Shown here one piece after another: positions 7,530-60,450 of a stretch of 64,000 bases of DNA. This DNA is from a virus. Lineage: Duplodnaviria; Heunggongvirae; Uroviricota; Caudoviricetes; Schitoviridae. Within the stretch, counting starts at the first letter, position 1, and each line of letters opens with the position of its first letter. A model generated the notes under the pieces. It searched no databases. It saw only the letters and a list, made by a program, of their open reading frames with translations, and was not told where the DNA came from. The DNA lies in the IMG/VR virus record IMGVR_UViG_3300024257_000004; one strand, written 5' to 3'. Both the position numbers and the translations under genes were made by a program.

Positions 7530-9833
7530 CTAAAATTCCCATCTCGCCACCTGTTCAATGATAGATATTCTGAATCGTTCATCGTCCATAGGATCATACC
7601 AGTAATCGTTGATTTCGTGCATAAGGGCGACCACTGATTCCTTAGTTGCCCCAAGGTCTTTAGCGTGCTTAGCGGCTCTGATTAACGCTCTAGAACAATT
7701 TGCTTCACACTCAAATGCATATGAGAATGTAGTAAGCTTGTTCTGTAACTGCGCGTCCATTTGAGACTTATTAAGTTTCTTAGGTTGTGAATTAGTTCCA
7801 GATAAAGCGTCAGATGAAGCTAATATAAACTCTTTGGCAGCTAATGGTTCTGCATCTAGTACTGATAGTACATTACGGTCTGCATAACTAAAATATATCT
7901 GCCCTTTAGGTAAGTTATCCACTTCAAGTTGCAGTTTATTTGCTATTGCTTGAATAAAGTATTTCCATTGTATGTCAGATACACTAACTACAGTATCTAG
8001 TTGCAGTAGTACTCTAAATTTAAATGGGTTATCTGGGTCCGACGTACGTGCTATATGGTGGTTAATGTCTTCAAGTAAGTAGTGAGCTTCCTCATCAGTA
8101 ATATCTGACGTATCGACATCAAGTACTACCCAAGAACACCCTCCTACGATATTATTACGACCTCTAACTCTGCCGCTAGGATTAGGATGCTTTTTACGAT
8201 CAATATCTGCACCGTTAAGTACATCCTTCAGCTCGAATGGTGTATAAGCAAAGTCATTAGTTAATAAATCAGCTAATTCTTCGAAAGAGGTTGGACCATA
8301 GTCATACCCGTGTACAGCAGTAGCAGCTACAAAAGCTTTAGCTTTCTTGATACGTTCATAGTCAGCATTTTCAGAAACTAGTTTCGCTACATTAGAATTA
8401 TCTACTTCTATATAGGATACGCCCATTTCCGTAGCAACTACCTGCTTTTCATAGCAGATGGCTGAGTTTTCTTTACAGATAGTGTATACGCCTTCTGGGT
8501 CATACGATGAAGCTAAATGTACTAATTCACACATATTAGTTGTTGAATCACCTTTAGGTGGTATGTATCCTAGCTTACGTAAGTCATGAAGAGTTATCAT
8601 AAACTTGTTATCAATAGCATGTAATTGCATATATTGAACAAATAGTTCATATGCTTCTTTCGATAATTGTTCTTCGAATGATAATAAATCCGGAGATAAA
8701 GTCTCTATAGTATTGATTGCATCGACATAATGAGATTCATTAATAGTTTCTGATTGATCAAGAATTGCGTAAGTACCTGATAATTTGAGGGCTAACCACT
8801 GCTTGTGTTTACGTGCTAGCTTACTTATAGGATAATGTGCATCTAAGTCTTCAGATTCTCTGGAGTTGTATTCAAGGTATATATCAAATAGGTCTTGAGC
8901 GCATGATTCCAGTGGTAATGTTTCCGGGATAGTATCAATATTAGTAACTAATTGATGAACATAGTCACCCACCAGTTCTTGAGCATGCGATACTCTTTCA
9001 CGTTCAGCTTGTTTATGTTTACGTACTTCTGTGATTGATTTGAAATTCTTCATCGGCACTTTATCTGGAGAGAAACTAAATAATGACCTACGTGCTAACT
9101 GTGTACTAAATACTGTACGAAATTTAGCCTTTATATTATTATCATAAAGAATAGCATCCTCTGAGCCAAATAGTAGAGCGTTAATAGGTAAAGCATTTAC
9201 TTCCCCGGTTTGATTCTCTGATGACTTAACAATCTTTGAAGGTATTTTACCTAAGTCATAACCAACTGCTATAGTTTTAATAATATCTATAAGTAGTGGG
9301 TTTGATTGTAGGTCAGTACCAATTTCAGACGTATTAACTGAAGCAGCTCCAATTGCCCCTTCTTCTAGGTGAACAAAATGTTGAACTAGTCCTTCTACTG
9401 TACCAAGACCAGCTTGTAGCGCTCTAGGTTTAGTATAGTAACTAATCCATTGATCAGTATTAGCTCCGTCAGCTTTAGCAGCTTCTTCGGCTTTTTGTAC
9501 AGCAAATTGTTCTCTGTAGTCTTCTATTATGTTATAAGATTGTTTAAATGCTTTTCTAATCATATTCATAGAACTATCTTTTGCTTGACCTGATCTTGCT
9601 AGTGCAAATGTAATAGCGTTACATGGTACTACAGTTCCGTCATGCAGTGTAATAGATCTACGTAGATGTGAAATCAGAGTAATTAACTCTGATAATGCTA
9701 TAGATAATCGTAAGTTATACGGAGCGTCTTCTGGGAGAATATCCACTGTTGCAGATACTACTTCGTGTGTAAGTGGTTTGAATGCCCCTTTACTCTCTAA
9801 GTGAGCACGTAGCATGTCTTTAGTTGTGCACAT
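7530..9833 (-). CDS. Putative replication protein with primase-polymerase (AEP)-like motif
   Basis: 767 aa with no Walker A. The C-terminal region has WVVLDVDTSD (hhhDhD), typical of AEP primase motif I. It sits between the ATPase and DNA polymerase genes. Confidence 0.4.
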   Translation of the reverse strand: MCTTKDMLRAHLESKGAFKPLTHEVVSATVDILPEDAPYNLRLSIALSELITLISHLRRSITLHDGTVVPCNAITFALARSGQAKDSSMNMIRKAFKQSYNIIEDYREQFAVQKAEEAAKADGANTDQWISYYTKPRALQAGLGTVEGLVQHFVHLEEGAIGAASVNTSEIGTDLQSNPLLIDIIKTIAVGYDLGKIPSKIVKSSENQTGEVNALPINALLFGSEDAILYDNNIKAKFRTVFSTQLARRSLFSFSPDKVPMKNFKSITEVRKHKQAERERVSHAQELVGDYVHQLVTNIDTIPETLPLESCAQDLFDIYLEYNSRESEDLDAHYPISKLARKHKQWLALKLSGTYAILDQSETINESHYVDAINTIETLSPDLLSFEEQLSKEAYELFVQYMQLHAIDNKFMITLHDLRKLGYIPPKGDSTTNMCELVHLASSYDPEGVYTICKENSAICYEKQVVATEMGVSYIEVDNSNVAKLVSENADYERIKKAKAFVAATAVHGYDYGPTSFEELADLLTNDFAYTPFELKDVLNGADIDRKKHPNPSGRVRGRNNIVGGCSWVVLDVDTSDITDEEAHYLLEDINHHIARTSDPDNPFKFRVLLQLDTVVSVSDIQWKYFIQAIANKLQLEVDNLPKGQIYFSYADRNVLSVLDAEPLAAKEFILASSDALSGTNSQPKKLNKSQMDAQLQNKLTTFSYAFECEANCSRALIRAAKHAKDLGATKESVVALMHEINDYWYDPMDDERFRISIIEQVARWEF

Positions 9834-10599
9834 TATAATTCCTTCATTATTTGTTTAATTTCCTCCGTAGAGCAGTTATTTGGTAGTTCAGTTTGACTAG
9901 CCCAGTCAGGGCCTATTTCTAGGTTAGCTTCGTTATGTACTATTTGATTATCCATAAAATCCTTCACCATAATTTCAACTAAGTTGTTATTTAGCCATTT
10001 AATTAAGGCTGGATCAGCTTTGATTATTCCATAAATTGAATCATAAATAGTCGACGTGACGTATAAGTCCGATTCAGGTATTTTAGCTTCTGCTTGTCTA
10101 TGGTGTAACTCATTAATTGAAATAGCAGTTAGTATTGACCAAAATTGTGAATTAGCGTTAAATAGCGTTCTTGAGTCTTTGTCTGGTGTATCAGAATAAA
10201 GCCTAAGACCTAATCCTATGTGAGTGTACCCAGTTTGTTTAACTTTATCGATTACCTTATTACGGAATGCTGATATATTTGGATACATCTTGTTATGGTA
10301 GTTATCAAAGATTTCCTGAGTAATAGTACCACCTTTATCAACATCAGGGAAGCCCCCATAAGCCAATTTGAAGGTTACAGGTTTAGACTCTTGTCTAAGT
10401 GCTCCGGCTTCTTCCGATGTCTTAGTAAGCTTTTTGAATAGTCTAGAAGCTTCCTTGTTATCAGTAAATTCTCCAACCATGTCTGCTATCCTATCCGGGT
10501 AGTAGTATGTAGCGGCTAATGAGTGGCCATCTAAGCCTTCAGAGAATACTGCGATTTTATTGTTATCCCCAGAAAGATTAGCTATAACTCTATCTTCTA
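9833..10599 (-). CDS. DNA polymerase I family (PolA), exon 2 (motif A second half, motif B, motif C)
   Basis: Carries motif B (KPVTFKLAYGG) and continues motif A (EDRVIANLSGD). It is in frame with exon 1 after removal of the intron, giving the spliced junction ...DYAAL|EDRVIANLSGD, which matches the PolA motif A DYSQIELRILAHLSGD. Confidence 0.75.
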
Positions 10600-11540
10600 C
10601 GTTTATATTCAACACAGCTCGTTAGGCTGTGCCGGTTCTTGCTTCGCTTACAGCGTTACAGGAAATCAAACTAACCCGGAGGATGCTGACTCGTTTGGAA
10701 CTCTATAAGCGAAGTGAACTCCTGCATGTTTCCATGCAGACTAGACTATATCATCATCCATGTAGGATGCTCACCACTTCCACCCACTTGGGTGTACTCC
10801 CTGCAAAGGGATAGTCGTTGCACGTTCCTCCGAAGAGGCTTCGCTCAGGATTGCCGGTAAATTAATACTACGGGTTTCCCTGAATTCGATGAGTTTGCTG
10901 TACACATTACTGCGTACAGGCGCTAGTTAATTAAGGTTCGAGACCAAAAATAGCCACCTGCGGATTTACGTAACCCACGAGTGACTTTGGATATATTTTG
11001 AAAAGGCACATTAGTTTGGCGAGTAGCTTCCCTATCGCTACAATAGGTAGCAATAAACTCACCAGATTTAGTGTACTGGTGTATCTCTTTAGAGCAGTGA
11101 TCATGAGTAGTTAACCCAGTATCAACTGCATGTTGAGAATTCTCCTGCTCAGTAGCCCATTCTAGGTTAGTTAAGCAGTTATTTAGCTTGTTACCATCGA
11201 TGTGGTTTACATGTGCCTTATTTTCCAAATTAGGTAAAAAAGTTTCACACATAAGTCTATGTACAGGTCTATTTCTACGAGAACCGCTATTGTCTACTAA
11301 TGTAACTATATAATAGTTGTTACTAGTATTTTTACTATTGTTTACTTGTTTAAGTATTTTAGAAGTTCCGTCTATTGTGTTTTTTCGTTTTTTGAGTGAT
11401 AGTACCTCTGTAGTCTCCCTACAGAGGTAATAGTCACTATACCCATTTATTTTTGTAAATTGTTTTTGTTCAAATACCATAGTAATCCTTTTTGTGTAGT
11501 CGAATTATAGGGGTATTTACCTTAAGTGTAACTTATGTTA
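10600..11540 (-). mobile_element. Group I intron (about 941 nt) interrupting DNA polymerase motif A, carrying an HNH homing endonuclease ORF
   Basis: Exon 1 ends with U and the intron ends with G (omega G at 10600). The 3' 320 nt (10600-10922) is GC-richer than flanking DNA and contains GNRA/UUCG-capped helices (CUGCAUG-GAAA-CAUGCAG, CCUC-UUCG-GAGG, GGG-AAA-CCC). An in-frame stop follows exon 1. Removal restores a perfect PolA motif A. Confidence 0.65.
10923..11480 (-). CDS. HNH homing endonuclease (intron-encoded)
   Basis: 185 aa with HVNHIDGNKLNNCLTNLEWATEQEN, an HNH motif followed by an AP2/NUMOD-like region. It lies inside the intron within the polymerase gene. Confidence 0.75.
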   Translation of the reverse strand: MVFEQKQFTKINGYSDYYLCRETTEVLSLKKRKNTIDGTSKILKQVNNSKNTSNNYYIVTLVDNSGSRRNRPVHRLMCETFLPNLENKAHVNHIDGNKLNNCLTNLEWATEQENSQHAVDTGLTTHDHCSKEIHQYTKSGEFIATYCSDREATRQTNVPFQNISKVTRGLRKSAGGYFWSRTLIN

Positions 11541-33454: not shown

Positions 33455-33458
33455 AAGG

Positions 33459-33540
33459 TTACCATATCAGGAATCGAACCTGAGACATCTTGCTTGTTTG
33501 CATTTTAAGGCAAGCGCTCTACCGACTGAGCTATACGGTA
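33459..33540 (-). tRNA. tRNA, type II (long variable arm), Leu-like with UAA in the anticodon loop; anticodon stem-loop irregular (4-bp stem, 8-nt loop)
   Basis: The minus-strand RNA reads UACCGUA-UA-GCUC-AGUCGGUA-GAGC-G-CUUGC-CUUAAAAU-GCAA-(14-nt variable)-UCAGG-UUCGAUU-CCUGA-UAUGGUA-A. The acceptor, D-arm and T-arm are canonical. Confidence 0.6.
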
Positions 33541-33546
33541 ATAGGT

Positions 33547-33692
33547 TACTCGAGTAGGGATTGAACCTACGGCCTTCATCGTGTAATGGTAAATCTGCTA
33601 GGATTTGAACCTAGAACCCCTAGACTAAGCTAGTGCTCTAACCAGTTGAGCTACAGATTTTGGATGACGCTCTACCACTGAGCTACCGAGTA
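33547..33692 (-). tRNA. tRNA-like gene interrupted in its anticodon loop by a complete second tRNA gene (outer gene; probable pseudo-tRNA or processed composite)
   Basis: The 5' half reads UACUCGG-UA-GCUC-AGUGGUA-GAGC-G-UCAUC-CA. The 3' half reads UUACAC-GAUGA-AGGCC-GUAGG-UUCAAUC-CCUAC-UCGAGUA-A. The acceptor halves (UACUCGG/UCGAGUA) and anticodon-stem halves (UCAUC/GAUGA) are complementary across a 73-nt insert. Confidence 0.5.
33588..33660 (-). tRNA. tRNA nested inside the anticodon loop of the outer tRNA-like gene (encoded CCA; anticodon arm noncanonical)
   Basis: The RNA reads AAAUCUG-UA-GCUC-AACUGGUUA-GAGC-...-CUAGG-UUCAAAU-CCUAG-CAGAUUU-A-CCA. The acceptor stem, D-arm and T-arm are perfect. 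The anticodon region (ACUAG-CUUAGU-CUAGG) has only a 6-nt loop. Confidence 0.5.
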
Positions 33693-33708: not shown

Positions 33709-35703
33709 CTAAAATTGTACGTTATATAGTTTTGTTGAATTAGGGTTAGTCACTTTAAGTACTACCTCGTTATTCACTGTAGAGCTGAAGCCTAGTCCAG
33801 CTAATTGTTCATTCGCTGCTTCTACTTTCATTTTAGATGCTAATACTTCGAATACTTTACGGTGTTCATTAAGATTAGCGGCTAAGAATTCGTTATAGAA
33901 TCCTCTAACTTGATCAGTAGTCTTACAACCATCTAGTATAAACATATAATGCTTATTACCGGTAGAGTTATCTTGCCAATGGTTAGGGGATAACATAATA
34001 TTATTTACTTTAACAAACTGCTGAGTTTTAACACCATAAATAGTTTTAGATGACTGAGAATGGGTTAAGTGGTGTGTAATAGTTATATTTCCAGAAGAAT
34101 CCACAACTAATGTCGCTATCCTAACGTTTTCCTTGTCACTAAGTGGTTTATGGTAACTGTATTCAAATACTTCTCCGTTAAACTCAATTTCTGCTTTGAA
34201 ACCTGATGTGGCTCCTCTAGCTGAAAAGTTATTTACAGCGTATTCATATATACCTTGTTTTACTTTACCGTGAGCATGAACAATGTTCTCTACTGCCACT
34301 TTACTACCCGGGCTAGTAATATCAACATCAAGGTTAAATGCTGCATTACCTTTATTTGAGTATTTGATATGACCGTATGGTGATTTACAGTATAAGTCAA
34401 GATCATCTGGATTATCGTTATCTTCATTCCACATAATAGAACACCTAGTTGCTCCGTCTACTTTACCCCCAAATGACTGCACTAGTTGCTTCATAGAGTC
34501 AGTAACGTTACCATTATAAGACCATGTAAAATTGTTATCCCATTTAAGTAAGTGCTTAGACTCATTAATAGGTGCTATAATATTCATAAAGTTGGATTGG
34601 TGTTTGTTATCAACTAAAGCTTCTATAGATTGTGCATTAGGTAATTGATGTGCTAAGAAATCTTCAATTGAGATATCCTGAGCATTATCAGTAGTTGGTT
34701 TCTTAACTTTTACTTCTTGTTTAAGCAGATCTGCTACACCACCTTTCATTAGAGATTGAACTGCAGTATCAGAGAATAATACGTCATTTACATTAACATC
34801 ATGAATAGTTGCATGTCTTCTAGCTAAAGAAGGCTCAAGGTCAAGTTCAGTGATAGTTTCCATTGCTTTATTAATCATACCCTGTGTAATAAGAGATTTA
34901 CTACGTTTATAGTTCTGAGGAGCTACTTTAGCTTCAAAAGACTTAACTGCAGATACTAAGTCGACTCCATTAGATAGGTCCTCAACTAATGTACCAATAA
35001 CTGTGTTCTTGAACCTAGCTGCTGGGTTATTATAATTTTCAAATCCGAAGAGTCTCTTTGTACCAGAGTACGACAGTGATTTGTTAAATAAATCTTTGAA
35101 CTGTTTAACAGCCTTAAGATGCTCGTCCCCTCTGTACAGAGAATTAGATTCAATAAGTTCAATAACATCATTAAGTGCGGATAGTTTAAACGATTCAATA
35201 GCTGTAGTTAACATAGTTGCTGAAGTAGTTGCTTGTCCAGTAATTTCTCCGACACTAGGGCCTTTAAACAGGCTAGAAGGCATCTCACAGTGGAAATGAT
35301 TCCAGTTAATAACTGAACCGTCAGGTAAGGTTTGTTTAGATTCATATGCTCCGTATTTCTTCTCAGAAGCATAAAATACTGAGTGAATAGGTTTAGTTTT
35401 TACGTAAGCTGACATACTATCTGCTACAGCTTGGTACTCATCATCAACAATTATATCCCATACTGAAATAAAGTTACCATCTTTTACTGCTACTAAATTA
35501 CCTACGTTTCTGATAAAGTTCTTACAACATGAACAATCATGCTTAGTGTTAGTGATGTAGGTAGGATTAGTTCCTTCCGGGAACGCATTAAGGTAATGTT
35601 CTTTAATTTCGTCTCTATCGATATTCATTCTGAATAGTGGGTAGTTATTCGCCATATGGTTGAATTGGTTGTGCACTAATTGTGCGAATTGTTTAAAATT
35701 CAT
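33709..35703 (-). CDS. Hypothetical large protein (664 aa)
   Basis: Long ORF with good codon periodicity and no recognised catalytic motif. It is adjacent to the tRNA-like cluster. Confidence 0.55.
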   Translation of the reverse strand: MNFKQFAQLVHNQFNHMANNYPLFRMNIDRDEIKEHYLNAFPEGTNPTYITNTKHDCSCCKNFIRNVGNLVAVKDGNFISVWDIIVDDEYQAVADSMSAYVKTKPIHSVFYASEKKYGAYESKQTLPDGSVINWNHFHCEMPSSLFKGPSVGEITGQATTSATMLTTAIESFKLSALNDVIELIESNSLYRGDEHLKAVKQFKDLFNKSLSYSGTKRLFGFENYNNPAARFKNTVIGTLVEDLSNGVDLVSAVKSFEAKVAPQNYKRSKSLITQGMINKAMETITELDLEPSLARRHATIHDVNVNDVLFSDTAVQSLMKGGVADLLKQEVKVKKPTTDNAQDISIEDFLAHQLPNAQSIEALVDNKHQSNFMNIIAPINESKHLLKWDNNFTWSYNGNVTDSMKQLVQSFGGKVDGATRCSIMWNEDNDNPDDLDLYCKSPYGHIKYSNKGNAAFNLDVDITSPGSKVAVENIVHAHGKVKQGIYEYAVNNFSARGATSGFKAEIEFNGEVFEYSYHKPLSDKENVRIATLVVDSSGNITITHHLTHSQSSKTIYGVKTQQFVKVNNIMLSPNHWQDNSTGNKHYMFILDGCKTTDQVRGFYNEFLAANLNEHRKVFEVLASKMKVEAANEQLAGLGFSSTVNNEVVLKVTNPNSTKLYNVQF

Positions 35704-45995: not shown

Positions 45996-46012
45996 GTGTT
46001 ATCCTTTAATTA

Positions 46013-46141
46013 TTTTATGTCAATCCAGCCTGAATCGCTTTCTTTATCAATTCTAGCCTGTTCTTTACCCATTAGTTTAATAGCTATGAGTAATAATATT
46101 CCGCATGCTAGTAGTCCGATAAAATCTATGTAATGTTCCAT
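46013..46141 (-). CDS. Small membrane peptide (42 aa), not in the ORF track
   Basis: AAAGGA-N7-ATG at 46141. The product MEHYIDFIGLLACGILLLIAIKLMGKEQ... has a single transmembrane helix. Confidence 0.3.
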
Positions 46142-46219: not shown

Positions 46220-48709
46220 CTAAAATTTAGTAATGTGGTTAAATGATAATCTACTAGAATCCATTCCAGAAATATTCATTTGATCTTGAGTGTAGTCTGC
46301 TGTAAATTCTAGAGAAGAGTTATCAGTTAACCTGTGGTTATAATTTGCATAAACACTAACTTCCTGACCTGCAGGAGCTAGTGAAGTTGATTGAGTTGAA
46401 TTAGATATTGATCCATCCATAGCTCTTGAAGTTGGTACAACTGAAGTAACTGATCCTGAATCAACTCTCATAGGTAGTTTAATACCACCGTTAAAGTTAG
46501 TTGAAACATAAGTTAGTTTAGCTGCCATACCTGTAACTGCAGTAATATCTGTAAACATTCCACCTACTTGTCCATCTGCTGTACCATAAGTTACTGATGC
46601 AGTAAGTCCGTTGTAAGTTGGAGTATCTATAGTTAAATACTGAGTTTTACCTGAGATGCTCATAGCACCCTCACCTGTAGTACCGAATAAGTCATTAGAT
46701 TGAGCATACATGAATTTGAATCCCTTGATACTAGTACCAATAGATGCTGATTGTGATGCTTCGTCTAATCCAATAATAATACTGTTAGAGAATTCCATTT
46801 GCTGGTAAGAATCTGCATCAAATGCATATCCTGTGTTAGCTACTTGTGATGTCATGTCAAGAGTATAACCTCTGTTGAAATCATCAAGAATTAATGTGCT
46901 AGACAGTGCTGATATACTAAGTGCTGATCCAAATGCAGAACTAGATGTAATCTGAGTCTTGCTTGAATCGAATTTAGGTGCTGTAGAAGTAATGTATCCA
47001 CCTGTAGGAATGTTTATAGTACCTACTGGTTGCATAGCTTTTTCAATATTTAATAGACCATGTCCATAAATATCATCAACACCTTCCTCACCTAAGTCAG
47101 TAGTTGTAGCAAACATAATGTCTCTGATTTCTCTACCTACTAGGTAAGGGAATTTCTCAGCTAATAAAGCAAAAGCACCTGTAACAACTGGAGCTGCCAT
47201 AGATGTACCCTGCATATAATTGTAGTCACCCTCATCGTATATTCTATCCGCACTGTCAGATGATTTAGTTGACATAATCATACCGTCAGATCCAGATGCT
47301 GTGAATAAATCTCCACCTGGAGCTACTATGTACCAGTCTTTAGTTATACCTGCAGCGTTAGAATAATACGCAAGAGTGTCATCTGTTGATTTGTTAACTC
47401 CGTTCCCAGAAGTGTAATTAAAGTTATATGAATCACTAATTGATCCAACTGCAATAAATGCTCCGTCATATGTCCCATCAACCATATCAGCATAATCCTC
47501 GAAAGCCGGAAGAGCTGCTGGGTAATTACATTTACCTGTTGAAGTATATCCCATATCCTTACATTGACCAGAATTATTACCTGCTGCAAATATTAATGAT
47601 GTGTCAGCTTTTAAAGCTGTTCTAATATCCTCTACACTACTAGCGTAGTATGATGGACTCCAATAAGTTGTACCTAGTGATAAGTTAGCAACTTTAGCGT
47701 CTTGTTCAGCTGCAAGTTTAATACCTGCAGTGATAGTACTTAATGAACCACTTCCTGAATTGCTTAGTACTTTGATACTAATAATATCAGCATTGTAAGC
47801 AACACCGTGCATACCTTCGTCATCCTTAGTTGCTGCGATAATACCTGCTACGTGCGTACCATGTCCATGAAGATCTTCACCTGAATCGCTATACATAGTA
47901 AATGTACCTTTGATGTTATCAGCAAGATCACTGTGATCAGCATCAATACCTGTATCTAATACAGCTACTTTAACACCTGCCCCTGTCCAACCTTGCTCAT
48001 AAGCAGCTGCAGCGTTAACTTTTTCTAAGAAGTTTCCAGCTTTATATTCTGCTGTGATTGGATTAAGGTCTTTAGTTCCAGGAGTTCCTAGAGTGTAATC
48101 AGGTGTTCCTACTATTCTAACTGGAGCAACTACTGGAATTTCTTTGATAGTGAATTCTTCTTTACCGTATGCAGATCTATCACCTTTATCATCCATTACA
48201 TAGAAAAGGATTTTGTAGTCTGCTACAGGAAGGTCATCAATAGTTTCTTTAGATGAATTAAGTACTTTAAAGTATCTACCATTCTTATACAAGAAACCTC
48301 TGTGTTGTACAATAGTACCGTCACTGTCTGTAGATTGTGATGAGTCTACTGTTACAGATTGACCACTAGTTGTTGCTGTTAGAACTAGTGTAGGTTTAGC
48401 GTTTACAACTTCTTCAGCTCCTGAAGCTGATACTGTTTTCTTTACTAGTTTATATTTTTTACCGTCGCTATCTTTAGCTACCATAAGAAACTTATAAGTT
48501 GCATCAACTAGCGGTAAATAGTCTGTACCAGTTAATTTAGTAAAGTATCTACCATTCTTCCATACGTATATAGTAGTAGAGCCTACTGAACCAGATGTGT
48601 CAATTTTGATACTTGATTCTGTAGTTGATATACTCATATTTGCTACTGCTGCGTAAGATGATGTAGCTAATAAAGCACTAAGTGCTAATAGTTTCAATAA
48701 ATGTTTCAT
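46220..48709 (-). CDS. Secreted subtilisin-like serine protease (peptidase S8) with N-terminal repeats and a beta-rich C-terminal domain ending in Phe (autotransporter-like)
   Basis: A signal peptide (MKHLLKLLALSALLATSSYAAVA) precedes the catalytic triad motifs VAVLDTGID (Asp), HGTHVAGIIA (His) and GTSMAAPVVTGA (Ser). An internal repeat (KNGRYF...) occurs twice. The C-terminus is ...SFNHITKF. Confidence 0.8.
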   Translation of the reverse strand: MKHLLKLLALSALLATSSYAAVANMSISTTESSIKIDTSGSVGSTTIYVWKNGRYFTKLTGTDYLPLVDATYKFLMVAKDSDGKKYKLVKKTVSASGAEEVVNAKPTLVLTATTSGQSVTVDSSQSTDSDGTIVQHRGFLYKNGRYFKVLNSSKETIDDLPVADYKILFYVMDDKGDRSAYGKEEFTIKEIPVVAPVRIVGTPDYTLGTPGTKDLNPITAEYKAGNFLEKVNAAAAYEQGWTGAGVKVAVLDTGIDADHSDLADNIKGTFTMYSDSGEDLHGHGTHVAGIIAATKDDEGMHGVAYNADIISIKVLSNSGSGSLSTITAGIKLAAEQDAKVANLSLGTTYWSPSYYASSVEDIRTALKADTSLIFAAGNNSGQCKDMGYTSTGKCNYPAALPAFEDYADMVDGTYDGAFIAVGSISDSYNFNYTSGNGVNKSTDDTLAYYSNAAGITKDWYIVAPGGDLFTASGSDGMIMSTKSSDSADRIYDEGDYNYMQGTSMAAPVVTGAFALLAEKFPYLVGREIRDIMFATTTDLGEEGVDDIYGHGLLNIEKAMQPVGTINIPTGGYITSTAPKFDSSKTQITSSSAFGSALSISALSSTLILDDFNRGYTLDMTSQVANTGYAFDADSYQQMEFSNSIIIGLDEASQSASIGTSIKGFKFMYAQSNDLFGTTGEGAMSISGKTQYLTIDTPTYNGLTASVTYGTADGQVGGMFTDITAVTGMAAKLTYVSTNFNGGIKLPMRVDSGSVTSVVPTSRAMDGSISNSTQSTSLAPAGQEVSVYANYNHRLTDNSSLEFTADYTQDQMNISGMDSSRLSFNHITKF

Positions 48710-48975
48710 TACATATCCTTTATTTGTTGGTATTTTAGTATTTCCTGTTTAACAGGAGTTCCTACATTATATAGCAGTGTCGCTATAAAGTCCATTAGTT
48801 CTTTATTCTTTTTGTTATGATCTTTACAACTCTCGTAGTACATTGTTTCTGAAGATTTAGACTGAGCAAGTTGACGTTTTAGTTGTTGATTTTCCCTCTC
48901 TAAACCTTCGTTTTTAGTCTCTAGACAACTAATGTCATGTACGAGTTGCTCCGTATATTTAGCTATTATTGACAT
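48709..48975 (-). CDS. Hypothetical coiled-coil protein
   Basis: 88-aa ORF. Confidence 0.45.
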   Translation of the reverse strand: MSIIAKYTEQLVHDISCLETKNEGLERENQQLKRQLAQSKSSETMYYESCKDHNKKNKELMDFIATLLYNVGTPVKQEILKYQQIKDM

Positions 48976-51093: not shown

Positions 51094-51134
51094 AATTAAC
51101 CCTTTTACTCTCTTATAGACTTAAAAAAAAAATA

Positions 51135-51167
51135 ACCACAATACTCAATTAAGAGTATTGTGGTTAA
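51135..51167 (-). terminator. Rho-independent terminator (13-bp stem) followed by a U-run on the minus strand
   Basis: AACCACAATACTC-AATTAA-GAGTATTGTGGTT is flanked by A10 on the plus strand (U-run on the minus transcript). It lies downstream of the RNA polymerase gene. Confidence 0.6.
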
Positions 51168-51198
51168 TAAGTCATCTGTTGTATAAAACAAAAAAAAA

Positions 51199-51222
51199 TA
51201 AGCATACACTGTTACGTGTATG
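51199..51222 (-). terminator. Second tandem terminator hairpin with U-run
   Basis: GCATACAC-TGTTAC-GTGTATGC is preceded on the plus strand by CAAAAAAAAATAA. Confidence 0.5.
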
Positions 51223-51234
51223 CTGTTTATAAGG

Positions 51235-59733: not shown

Positions 59734-59809
59734 GCTGTTGTAGCTCAGTTGGTAGAGCACCTCACTTGTAATGAGGCGGTCGGTGGTTCAAATCCTCTCA
59801 ACAGCTCCA
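59734..59809 (+). tRNA. tRNA-Thr (anticodon UGU)
   Basis: GCUGUUG-UA-GCUC-AGUUGGU-AGAGC-A-CCUCA-CUUGUAA-UGAGG...CAACAGC-U-CCA. The cloverleaf has a 7-bp acceptor stem and an encoded CCA. Confidence 0.8.
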
Positions 59810-59810
59810 C

Positions 59811-59886
59811 GGGGAATTAGCTCAGCTGGGAGAGCGTCTGCCTTGCACGTAGAAGGTCATCGGTTCGAACCCGATATTCTCCACCA
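59811..59886 (+). tRNA. tRNA-Ala (anticodon UGC)
   Basis: GGGGAAU-UA-GCUC-AGCUGGGA-GAGC-G-UCUGC-CUUGCAC-GUAGA-AGGUC-AUCGG-UUCGAAC-CCGAU-AUUCUCC-A-CCA. A G3:U70 pair is present, as expected for tRNA-Ala. Confidence 0.85.
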
Positions 59887-60022
59887 TATGAATTTATTAG
59901 ACACTGATTATGGAACCGGTAAATTAACTGGGGACTATTGAGTTAGAACACAATCTCTGTTCCGTGAATTCACAACACATATCTGCTCCGCCTCTCTATG
60001 AAGCGCAACCGAGCAGGTCTTT

Positions 60023-60097
60023 GGTCCCTTCATCTAATGGTTAGGATTTTGGATTTTCATTCCAACCATAGGAGTTCGAATCTCCTAGGGATCACCA
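60023..60097 (+). tRNA. tRNA-Glu (anticodon UUC)
   Basis: GGUCCCU-UC-AUCU-AAUGGUUA-GGAU-U-UUGGA-UUUUCAU-UCCAA-CCAU-AGGAG-UUCGAAU-CUCCU-AGGGAUC-A-CCA. Confidence 0.8.
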
Positions 60098-60100
60098 TAT

Positions 60101-60174
60101 TGACGTATCGCCAAGCGGTAAGGCCGTAGCTTTTGGTGCTACTATCCTAGGTTCGATCCCTAGTGCGTCATCCA
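60101..60174 (+). tRNA. tRNA-Gln (anticodon UUG)
   Basis: UGACGUA...GUAGC-UUUUGGU-GCUAC-UAUC-CUAGG-UUCGAUC-CCUAG-UGCGUCA-U-CCA. Confidence 0.8.
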
Positions 60175-60189
60175 TAAATAATAATAAGT

Positions 60190-60266
60190 GCGGTTGTAGT
60201 TTAGTTGGTTAGAATGCCTGCCTGTCACGCAGGAGGTCGCGAGTTCGAGTCTCGTCAACCGCGCCA
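60190..60266 (+). tRNA. tRNA-Asp (anticodon GUC)
   Basis: GCGGUUG-UA-GUUU-AGUUGGUUA-GAAU-G-CCUGC-CUGUCAC-GCAGG-AGGUC-GCGAG-UUCGAGU-CUCGU-CAACCGC-G-CCA. Confidence 0.85.
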
Positions 60267-60271
60267 CTTTT

Positions 60272-60347
60272 TCCGAATTAGCTCAGTTGGTAGAGCGCAC
60301 GACTGTTAATCGTGTTGTCGATGGTTCGAGCCCATCATTCGGAGCCA
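60272..60347 (+). tRNA. tRNA-Asn (anticodon GUU)
   Basis: UCCGAAU-UA-GCUC-AGUUGGU-AGAGC-G-CACGA-CUGUUAA-UCGUG-UUGUC-GAUGG-UUCGAGC-CCAUC-AUUCGGA-G-CCA. Confidence 0.85.
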
Positions 60348-60362
60348 CAAATTTAAAATGTA

Positions 60363-60450
60363 GAGAGTTGACAGAGTTGGTCGAATGTACCGGTTTTGAA
60401 AACCGGCGAGGTTTACGCCTCCAGCGGTTCGAATCCGCTACTCTCTGCCA
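60363..60450 (+). tRNA. tRNA-Ser (anticodon UGA), type II with long variable arm
   Basis: AGAGAGU...CCGGU-UUUGAAA-ACCGG-(variable arm CGAGGUUUACGCCUCC)-AGCGG-UUCGAAU-CCGCU-ACUCUCU-G-CCA. Confidence 0.8.

Follow-up and report, generated by a model that had tools for sequence, protein, structure and literature searches.

The window, meaning the whole 64,000-nt stretch of IMG/VR virus record IMGVR_UViG_3300024257_000004 analysed here, carries phage genes for an RNR, a primase, a Dda helicase, a NAMPT, an exonuclease and an HNH protein, together with a tRNA block. This replication and metabolism gene set confirms that the genome is that of a phage, and hence that the subtilase gene described below is phage-encoded, as an initial annotation had proposed. 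Similarity to Alteromonas and Vibrio phages, at about 45% of amino acids, is the sole basis on which a marine gammaproteobacterial host is suggested. The subtilase gene is co-directional within the block of replication and nucleotide-metabolism genes; no structural genes adjoin it, and nothing recognisable as a spanin or lysis gene was seen nearby. Its previously annotated 829-aa frame runs exactly from ATG to stop on the minus strand, with the following elements of expression.

46220..48709, minus strand: S8+barrel gene, complete CDS from the ORF list (829 aa plus stop codon, 46220-46222)
48716..48720, minus strand: Shine-Dalgarno AAGGA, 6 nt 5' of the ATG, read directly from the sequence
48707-48709, minus strand: start ATG, sharing 1 nt with the TAA stop of an upstream 88-aa ORF (TAATG)

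An identical protein (P0001) is encoded on 8 metagenomic contigs with lengths of up to 115 kb. Synteny with the locus of a 61%-identical homologue was considered and rejected, the 195-aa neighbours being unrelated. PADLOC returned generic S8 similarity only.

The N-terminal portion of the protein consists of a predicted export signal and two immunoglobulin-like repeats.

48650..48709, minus strand: Sec-type signal peptide found by sequence inspection, residues 1-20, MKHLLKLLALSALLATSSYA with cleavage before A, no lipobox
48395..48649, minus strand: PKD-like Ig repeat 1, residues 21-105
48140..48394, minus strand: PKD-like Ig repeat 2, residues 106-190; a linker modelled at low confidence comes next (residues 191-205)

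On inspection, the signal peptide displays a basic n-region, a hydrophobic core and small residues at -3 and -1 (S-Y-A, with A following the cleavage site). It contains no Cys, and the 829-aa protein is therefore not a lipoprotein. Similar hydrophobic N-termini occur in nearly all of 26 aligned relatives, and the region is modelled as a lone helix of low pLDDT. The protein thus has, by prediction, the N-terminal Sec signal peptide that characterises type Va autotransporters. The two repeats (approximately residues 22-105 and 106-205) align with a Smith-Waterman score of 85, compared to 27 +/- 5 for shuffled sequences (n=1000; z = 11.7), and 0/1000 shuffles reach the observed score. Repeat 2 is modelled with pLDDT >90 at residues 110-180, and the linker falls below 50 at residues 192-204. 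The Sec signal and the duplicated N-terminal repeat of the initial annotation are both borne out by these results.

The central portion of the protein is a subtilase domain containing all of the expected catalytic residues and a single pair of cysteines.

47030..48094, minus strand: subtilase (peptidase S8) catalytic domain, residues 206-560
47954..47956, minus strand: catalytic Asp252 (LDTGID), aligned with Savinase VAVLDTGIS
47861..47863, minus strand: catalytic His283 (GHGTHVAG), from the Savinase alignment and relatives
47576..47578, minus strand: oxyanion-hole Asn378 (AAGNN), from the Savinase alignment and relatives
47201..47203, minus strand: catalytic Ser503 (GTSMAAP), from the Savinase alignment and relatives
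47528..47563, minus strand: C383 and C394, the only cysteines of the protein, closely spaced within the S8 domain

Pfam Peptidase_S8 (PF00082) matches residues 243-551 with E = 1.3e-54 and 186 bits (cut-off 21.8), and the match spans the whole profile (positions 1-288 of 288). D252, H283, N378 and S503 correspond residue for residue to those of subtilisin Savinase, with the Asp-His-Ser order kept, and all four are invariant in 49 close and 53 distant relatives. The triad read initially as DTG/HGTH/GTSMAAP is accordingly aligned in both the Pfam profile and the Savinase comparison. The domain has the subtilisin alpha/beta fold, and its closest structural matches are secreted proteases, including the passenger of the Ssp autotransporter. 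From its residues, the phage subtilase is predicted to be catalytically complete and competent. The Cys pair is invariant in the 26-sequence alignment and is spaced by 8-18 residues in the 49 relatives, with the single exception of the C-terminally truncated P0012; many of these relatives have no other Cys. This pattern fits a probable disulfide formed outside the cytoplasm.

Subtilase genes also occur in large Bacillus phages (a PHROG 3677 'protease' match), and they provide the argument for a virion-associated or morphogenetic protease acting in the prohead or tail, or as a depolymerase-like tail enzyme. These genes align with residues 230-576 only, that is, with the S8 domain. A Sec signal peptide and a terminal-Phe membrane barrel (see below) are misfits for cytoplasmic virion assembly, and the neighbourhood of the gene is free of structural genes. 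A virion role is most improbable, and the earlier suggestion of virion maturation is unlikely to apply to a Sec-exported membrane-barrel protein.

The remainder of the protein comprises a conserved intervening module and a C-terminal β-barrel.

46805..47029, minus strand: conserved post-S8 module, residues 561-635, containing the family motif LDDFNRGYTLDM
46223..46804, minus strand: C-terminal β-barrel, residues 636-829, about 12-14 antiparallel strands with short turns
46223..46252, minus strand: β-signal-like last strand RLSFNHITKF, with terminal Phe

The post-S8 module is modelled as short strands and helices of 3-5 residues, none of them long, with pLDDT of about 80-90. The motif LDDFNRGYTLDM is kept across relatives as D-x-[FY]-x-R-x-Y, and many cellular relatives have a variable insert between this module and the barrel. 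The last ~270 aa are β-rich and end in ...ITKF. Modelling of the C-terminal domain gives a closed antiparallel β-barrel (pLDDT 91.8, pTM 0.83), for which DSSP allows about 12 long strands; nearly all of its structural neighbours are barrels of the outer membrane. F or W is the last residue in 46/48 full-length relatives; the last profile column, reached by 127 sequences, contains F in 115, W in 12 and nothing else. The model and the terminal residue together indicate that the C-terminal domain is an outer-membrane-type β-barrel with a terminal aromatic signal. The β-rich, barrel-type C-terminus with a terminal aromatic had been recognised in the initial annotation, which named a missing barrel signal and misaligned catalytic residues as the findings that would speak against it; the barrel signal is present and the triad aligned. 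A mean-field DCA test of strand pairing and closure (262 barrel sequences, Meff 224) was dominated by gap and near-diagonal artefacts and gave no usable signal.

The initial annotation additionally called the C-terminus autotransporter-like. The order of signal peptide, passenger and barrel upholds this description; the lack of both a PF03797 match and a pore helix does not. PF03797 finds no match in the phage protein at E <= 1 (Pfam), none in 25 isolated barrel domains at E <= 10, and none in 53 full-length relatives (0/53), even at E <= 0.01. Comparison by hhalign with two PF03797 domains of S8 autotransporters yields a probability of 0.1%, and the barrel profile gives an EprS-like classical autotransporter E = 0.4. 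No match to that profile was obtained among all PDB sequences at E <= 10, and an NCBIfam search for the identity of the barrel returned nothing. In classical autotransporters, an alpha-helical linker fills the barrel pore (PMC5472700). The confident model of residues 561-643, between S8 and barrel, has helices of 3-5 residues only, and no pore-spanning helix is seen between protease and barrel, an observation that counts against surface display.

A divergent but true type Va autotransporter, with a 12-stranded PF03797-type translocator lying past sequence detection, would account for the shared order of signal peptide, passenger, C-terminal barrel and terminal aromatic, for a strand count of about 12, and for few, closely spaced cysteines; subtilase autotransporters are, moreover, known (NalP, PMC5472700; Ssp). 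Against it stand the profile results for the query and 53/53 relatives, the hhalign and EprS-like comparisons, the missing helical plug, and the exclusive pairing of this barrel with S8, PF03797 being found with passengers of many kinds. This explanation is improbable. Profile comparisons instead indicate that the barrel is not a classical autotransporter β-domain and belongs to a large, unannotated, S8-dedicated family. No sequence method ties the barrel to any characterised translocator, a point against the role favoured below. A weak sequence link, which speaks for an outer-membrane barrel, is to the OprB porin family (PF04966), matched in 3/53 relatives only and limited to the last strands: P0148 gives a weak, in-register match (E 3.9e-5) above the Pfam cut-off, and that of P0155, also in register, falls below it (17.9 vs 22.9 bits). 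The 829-aa protein itself has no match to OprB or another porin family in Pfam.

The barrel family comprises 2889 clusters at 50% identity. The domain is always C-terminal, ending <=3 aa from the protein end in 160/204 cases, and all 53 of the 53 members sampled are fused to S8, in proteases of 700-1200 aa. Identity to P0002 is 71% for the barrel and 65% for the whole protein, so conservation of the barrel equals or exceeds that of the protein that contains it. The N-terminal modules vary across the family and include PKD, LapA/BapA, FG-GAP and, in 9/53, ankyrin; lipoboxes occur in some relatives. P0006-P0010 end some 40 residues short at the C-terminus, and inserts are present in cellular members. 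Relatives of cellular origin come from Ca. Thioglobus and from a chromosome of proteobacterial type, and P0028 is a chromosomal relative among housekeeping genes.

The gene is not a one-off, since the fusion recurs in most of the closest IMG/VR S8 loci: 54 of the best 80, on contigs of 5 to 302 kb, as counted with HMMER filters off (43 with the default filters, which drop biased barrel sequences). Secreted proteases had been described as uncommon in phage genomes, a rarity overstated for metagenomic phages in light of this count. The fusion is also found in unrelated phage or plasmid-like backbones, and the IMG/VR S8 loci identified as Bacillus phages have no barrel. Among species-representative genomes, 4/80 S8 loci bear the barrel, a small sample rather than a taxonomic census because the scan was swamped by generic S8 matches; the barrel alignment by itself was too divergent to seed such a scan. 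The four loci belong to Aquabacterium, Thermodesulfobacteriota, a Gammaproteobacteria MAG and Bacteroidaceae, all of which are diderm lineages, and none of the Bacillota, Actinomycetota, Chloroflexota or archaeal loci among the 80 carries the barrel. Searched by tblastn, the barrel has no match in 50,697 phage or 72,556 plasmid records, and the barrel profile found none in five deposited S8-bearing 'phage' records of Gram-negative or gut origin (Atu_ph07, Phosso, Acinetobacter MD-2021a and two faecal contigs). The S8 protein of 'Pseudomonas phage Y5', considered as a carrier, was rejected as an EprS-like classical autotransporter in host-like DNA. No cultured phage carrying the fusion was found in searches of deposited records, and no description of a phage S8+barrel protein was found in the literature.

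The role that we favour, and regard as probable rather than assured, is that of a phage-made, BAM-inserted, envelope-anchored active protease, autotransporter-like, that cleaves envelope, surface or extracellular proteins during infection. The phage would make a catalytically competent subtilase in the infected Gram-negative cell, and the protein would be exported by Sec via its cleavable signal peptide. The C-terminal ~190-270 residues would then enter the host outer membrane as a barrel, presumably by the action of BAM, which would recognise the terminal-Phe β-signal; an outer-membrane location is favoured because the barrel-bearing genome loci are all diderm (4/80, a small sample). The two PKD-like domains and the S8 domain, with its one probable disulfide, would remain tethered to the barrel. 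Autotransporter-like surface exposure or release seems more likely than periplasmic retention, because the family's N-terminal modules (PKD, LapA/BapA, FG-GAP, ankyrin) are typically extracellular and because some relatives have lipoboxes, like lipidated NalP, a subtilase autotransporter that releases other surface proteins (PMC5472700). Cleavage might strip protein receptors or surface structures and thereby keep progeny and superinfecting phages from being lost on infected cells and debris, or might degrade matrix or particulate protein. We infer that Sec and BAM are used, as well as which way the protease faces, when the gene is expressed and what is cleaved.

Orientation is also the point on which the principal competing explanation turns. 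A domain fused N-terminally to a barrel with an even number of strands lies by default in the periplasm; porins that have N-terminal periplasmic domains are examples. The barrel could accordingly serve as an outer-membrane anchor only, with PKD and S8 domains facing the periplasm and cleaving envelope proteins there: tethers between outer membrane and peptidoglycan, periplasmic defence or stress factors, or receptors attacked from inside. Such cleavage could contribute to host takeover or to the final outer-membrane step of lysis, a use with which the absence of recognisable spanin or lysis genes near the gene is consistent. The barrel ends in a periplasm-side β-signal, and an even strand number would place the fused protease in the periplasm; nothing in the model, helical or otherwise, obviously spans the pore; the weak similarity in sequence is to OprB porins, not translocators; and barrel size seems variable (P0006-P0010, the cellular inserts), unlike the fixed 12-strand autotransporter barrel. 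A broad-specificity subtilase lacking a prodomain or inhibitor would, however, be hazardous in the periplasm of cellular carriers, such as that of chromosomal P0028, and the structural matches of the S8 domain to secreted proteases, including the Ssp passenger, together with N-terminal modules typical of extracellular proteins, point outwards. Periplasmic action is, on this evidence, rather unlikely.

A different target, with export as in the favoured surface-directed role, is envisaged if the gene is a nutrient-scavenging auxiliary gene, whose released protease would digest environmental protein, rather than the cell's own envelope, to supply amino acids to the infected marine host. PKD domains do occur in substrate-binding secreted proteases, PrtV and ColH among them, and NAMPT and RNR are further metabolic genes of the window. 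No release site is in evidence, though, a gain within a single lytic cycle is questionable, and a literature search found no paper tying S8 peptidases to viral auxiliary metabolism, making this function quite improbable.

The means by which phages are known to alter the surface of infected cells are chiefly small lipoproteins, porin-type morons and glycan-modifying enzymes. An active protease of full size, placed in the outer membrane by a phage of lytic type, would remodel the envelope in a different, testable way. A more far-reaching proposal, which we consider distinctly unlikely, is that the barrel is a hitherto unrecognised S8-dedicated outer-membrane export and anchor module, a new type-V-like branch without the autotransporter helix, that phages of Gram-negative hosts have repeatedly recruited as a receptor-destroying enzyme. 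If so, the protease displayed by an infected cell would shave that cell's own surface proteins, leading to superinfection exclusion and preventing the waste of progeny on infected cells and debris. The barrel family, which lacks Pfam, NCBIfam and PDB coverage, merits a profile and a structure for secretion biology.

Several characterised systems share parts of this architecture. The subtilase-type classical autotransporters NalP (Neisseria meningitidis), SphB1, Ssp, EprS and AasP share the order of signal peptide, passenger and C-terminal barrel. The phage protein differs in having a barrel that is not PF03797 and that belongs to a family found only with S8, in lacking a pore-plugging alpha-helix (in the model) and a β-helical stalk, and in being phage-carried. 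Omp33, KdgM/NanC, OmpG and OprB-type porins are stand-alone channels, whereas the phage barrel forms the C-terminal end of a protease. The S8 proteins of large Bacillus phages (PHROG 3677; SPO1-like, Tsamsa-like) are 30-33% identical over about 300 aa; they belong to phages of Gram-positive hosts and lack the signal-peptide/PKD/barrel architecture. Vibrio PrtV and Pseudoalteromonas deseasin MCP-01, both from marine bacteria, likewise combine PKD-like Ig domains with a secreted protease, but these enzymes use other release routes and have no membrane barrel, and the PKD-like domains of the phage protein are N-terminal. The fold of the phage S8 domain is close to those of deseasin and Pro21717.

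The protease gene occupies 46220..48709 on the minus strand in the ORF list, running from ATG to stop and encoding 829 aa, in exact agreement with the coordinates of the initial annotation. Its start codon shares one base with the stop codon (TAA) of an 88-aa ORF ahead of it, and the gene is therefore probably co-translated inside an operon. Two kinds of expression signal accompany it:

6 nt upstream of the protease ATG, minus strand: ribosome-binding site AAGGA (sequence read)
51133-51224: two strong terminator-like hairpins, before the co-directional gene array that includes the protease gene

Eight metagenomic contigs, up to 115 kb in length, encode a protein identical to this one. The neighbouring genes encode small proteins without a known function, one HD-type phosphohydrolase-like protein and one HTH protein. 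None near the protease gene was recognised as structural or lytic, and a role of the enzyme in the virion is very unlikely. Directly downstream lies a 43-aa ORF (46010-46141, minus strand; MEHYIDFIGLLACGILLLIAIKLMGKEQ...) with one hydrophobic helix, which is also called on an identical metagenomic contig, has no PHROG match and has no counterpart beside the 61%-identical homologue of the protease.

The signal peptide, N-terminal repeat and complete subtilisin triad first read from the protein all withstand closer analysis. The N-terminus is signal-peptide-like (MKHLLKLLALSALLATSSYA/A) and devoid of Cys, and the internal repeat is real, with a Smith-Waterman score of 85 against 27 +/- 5 in 1000 shuffles. 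Pfam Peptidase_S8 matches at E 1.3e-54, and exact residue-for-residue alignment to subtilisin Savinase places the active-site residues at D252, H283, N378 and S503, which are invariant in 49 close and 53 distant relatives. As judged from these alignments, the subtilase active site is intact. The I9 propeptide is absent from the protein. Its sole cysteines, C383 and C394, form a closely spaced pair kept throughout the family, in keeping with a disulfide that forms once the protein has been exported. The segment that follows the catalytic domain, residues 561-635, bears the family motif D-x-[FY]-x-R-x-Y; because many cellular relatives carry a variable insert between this segment and the barrel, it is more plausibly a protease appendage than a plug.

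As noted initially, the C-terminal region is rich in beta-structure and finishes in ITKF; it spans ~270 aa and matches outer-membrane barrels. Modelled alone with 25 relatives, this domain yields a confident prediction (pLDDT 91.8, pTM 0.83), in which DSSP assigns about twelve long antiparallel strands and two 4-residue strands to residues 644-827, with short turns on both sides and an alternating hydrophobic face in 10 of the 12 long strands. Family members end in classic beta-signals (...VSVNYSF, ...LGVTYEF, ...DVAYRW); of 48 full-length relatives, 46 terminate in F or W, and so does every one of the 127 sequences whose alignment reaches the final profile column. In-register Pfam matches to the OprB porin family, covering its final strands, come from two relatives: P0148 just above the curated cut-off and P0155 below it. 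With the confident model, the terminal F/W and the link to OprB, the proposed beta-barrel is borne out as far as prediction goes, and the domain is predicted to be an outer-membrane barrel with a terminal-Phe signal.

Several comparisons show that this is not a classical autotransporter beta-domain. PF03797 was not found in the protein or in 53 full-length relatives, nor, with the threshold relaxed to E <= 10, in 25 barrel domains searched in isolation; hhalign returned 0.1% probability for the barrel when compared with PF03797 domains from two S8 autotransporters; and, whereas NalP-type translocators are defined by a pore-filling alpha-helix (PMC5472700), the confident model contains none in the ~80 residues between protease and barrel. 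The barrel profile also has no match among all PDB sequences and scores an EprS-like classical autotransporter at E = 0.4. Of the autotransporter-like C-terminus originally suggested, the layout and architecture therefore stand and the family assignment does not: the protein is a subtilase of autotransporter-like layout whose barrel belongs to a separate, unannotated family dedicated to S8 proteases.

A search of 1.84 billion proteins with the barrel profile recovered 2889 cluster representatives (E <= 1e-3), with the barrel almost always at the extreme C-terminus of proteins of 700-1200 aa. Peptidase_S8 is present in 53/53 sampled members, preceded variously by PKD, LapA/BapA, FG-GAP or ankyrin repeats. 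Among cellular carriers are a lipoprotein of Ca. Thioglobus and a gene located among housekeeping genes on a 2.1-Mb chromosome, and close full-length relatives of the phage protein occur in other mobile backbones:

contig with GH19, PhoH and TROVE genes
contig with RNR and capsule-synthesis genes
SU10-portal phage
TrfA/ParA plasmid-like element
backbone in which the relative adjoins PglZ and BrxL genes

Immediately upstream of the closest divergent homologue, P0002 (61% identity), stand genes for PglZ, BrxL and DUF2130, components of BREX-type defence (locus L003, 3110-9869). The contig of P0002 may derive from a phage or belong to a defence island, and the locus has no synteny with the window. 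In IMG/VR, 54 of the best 80 S8 loci carry the barrel, at the ORF end in 48 of the 54, on contigs of 5 to 302 kb; among species-representative genomes the count is 4 of the best 80, all from diderm lineages. The fusion of S8 protease and barrel is thus recurrent in uncultured phages. Deposited phage and plasmid records gave no tblastn match to the barrel, five candidate deposited phage records scanned with the barrel profile were negative, and no characterised member of the fusion was found. Two deposited 'phage' records have S8 matches in host-like DNA and probably contain bacterial sequence: OQ572407.1 ('Pseudomonas phage Y5', UNVERIFIED), where the match is an EprS-like classical autotransporter adjoining an oxidoreductase-like ORF, and an Acinetobacter phage MD-2021a contig, where it lies among pheP and ychM.

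The protein is an ordinary enzyme in an unusual place, combining an export-type N-terminus and a Cys pair of extracytoplasmic type with a phage location. Sec would export the protease and BAM would insert the barrel, which would hold the enzyme at the infected cell's outer membrane. N-terminal fusions to a barrel are periplasmic by default, and the model has no visible pore-spanning segment, so a periplasmic protease, acting in envelope takeover or aiding outer-membrane disruption at lysis, stays alive as the less probable reading; a prodomain-less subtilase in that compartment would, however, harm the many cellular carriers, and the N-terminal modules of the family are of extracellular types. 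For both reasons exposure at the cell surface is favoured, and also because the closest analogues, subtilase autotransporters such as NalP, which releases other surface proteins (PMC5472700), act there. At the surface, the enzyme would have extracellular protein, or the infected cell's surface or envelope proteins, as its substrates, and a putative role in receptor destruction or superinfection exclusion is attractive.

The window itself is phage. Between 0.4 and 54 kb almost all ORFs >= 120 aa lie on the minus strand, among them genes for ribonucleotide reductase, primase, a Dda-like helicase, nicotinamide phosphoribosyltransferase and an HNH endonuclease, together with many ORFs without matches; a plus-strand block from 57 kb holds an exonuclease and seven tRNAs. 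At about 54000-57000 gene orientation changes from minus to plus and both skews, GC and AT, flip sign; this switch may mark a region of divergent transcription or a boundary related to replication. At the nucleotide level, a search of 50,697 deposited phage genomes found nothing matching the window. Among proteins the closest similarities reach ~45% identity: the primase resembles that of Alteromonas podophages, and a conserved protein of unknown function resembles one from a Vibrio phage. On these grounds the host is probably a marine gammaproteobacterium. Further features are:

10722-10943, minus strand: group I catalytic intron (Rfam RF00028, 99.8 bits, full model)
33457-33540 and 33587-33660, minus strand: two tRNA-like genes (Rfam 61.9 and 56.2 bits)
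33709-35703, minus strand: 664-aa protein of unknown function (PHROG 1735, E 1e-230)
59734-60450, plus strand: seven canonical tRNAs, Thr, Ala, Glu, Gln, Asp, Asn, Ser (ARAGORN, Rfam)

The intron sits between ORFs 9833..10615 and 10923..11480 and probably splits a gene just downstream of primase. ARAGORN gave no anticodon for either tRNA-like gene; the program's output was a 4-nt 'taaa' and a 2-nt anticodon loop. Unusual tRNAs, suppressor-type tRNAs or decayed genes are the possible readings. Relatives of the 664-aa protein, 40-45% identical, occur in 549 records of phages infecting many different hosts, under annotations that vary between YfaP, structural protein and serine protease.
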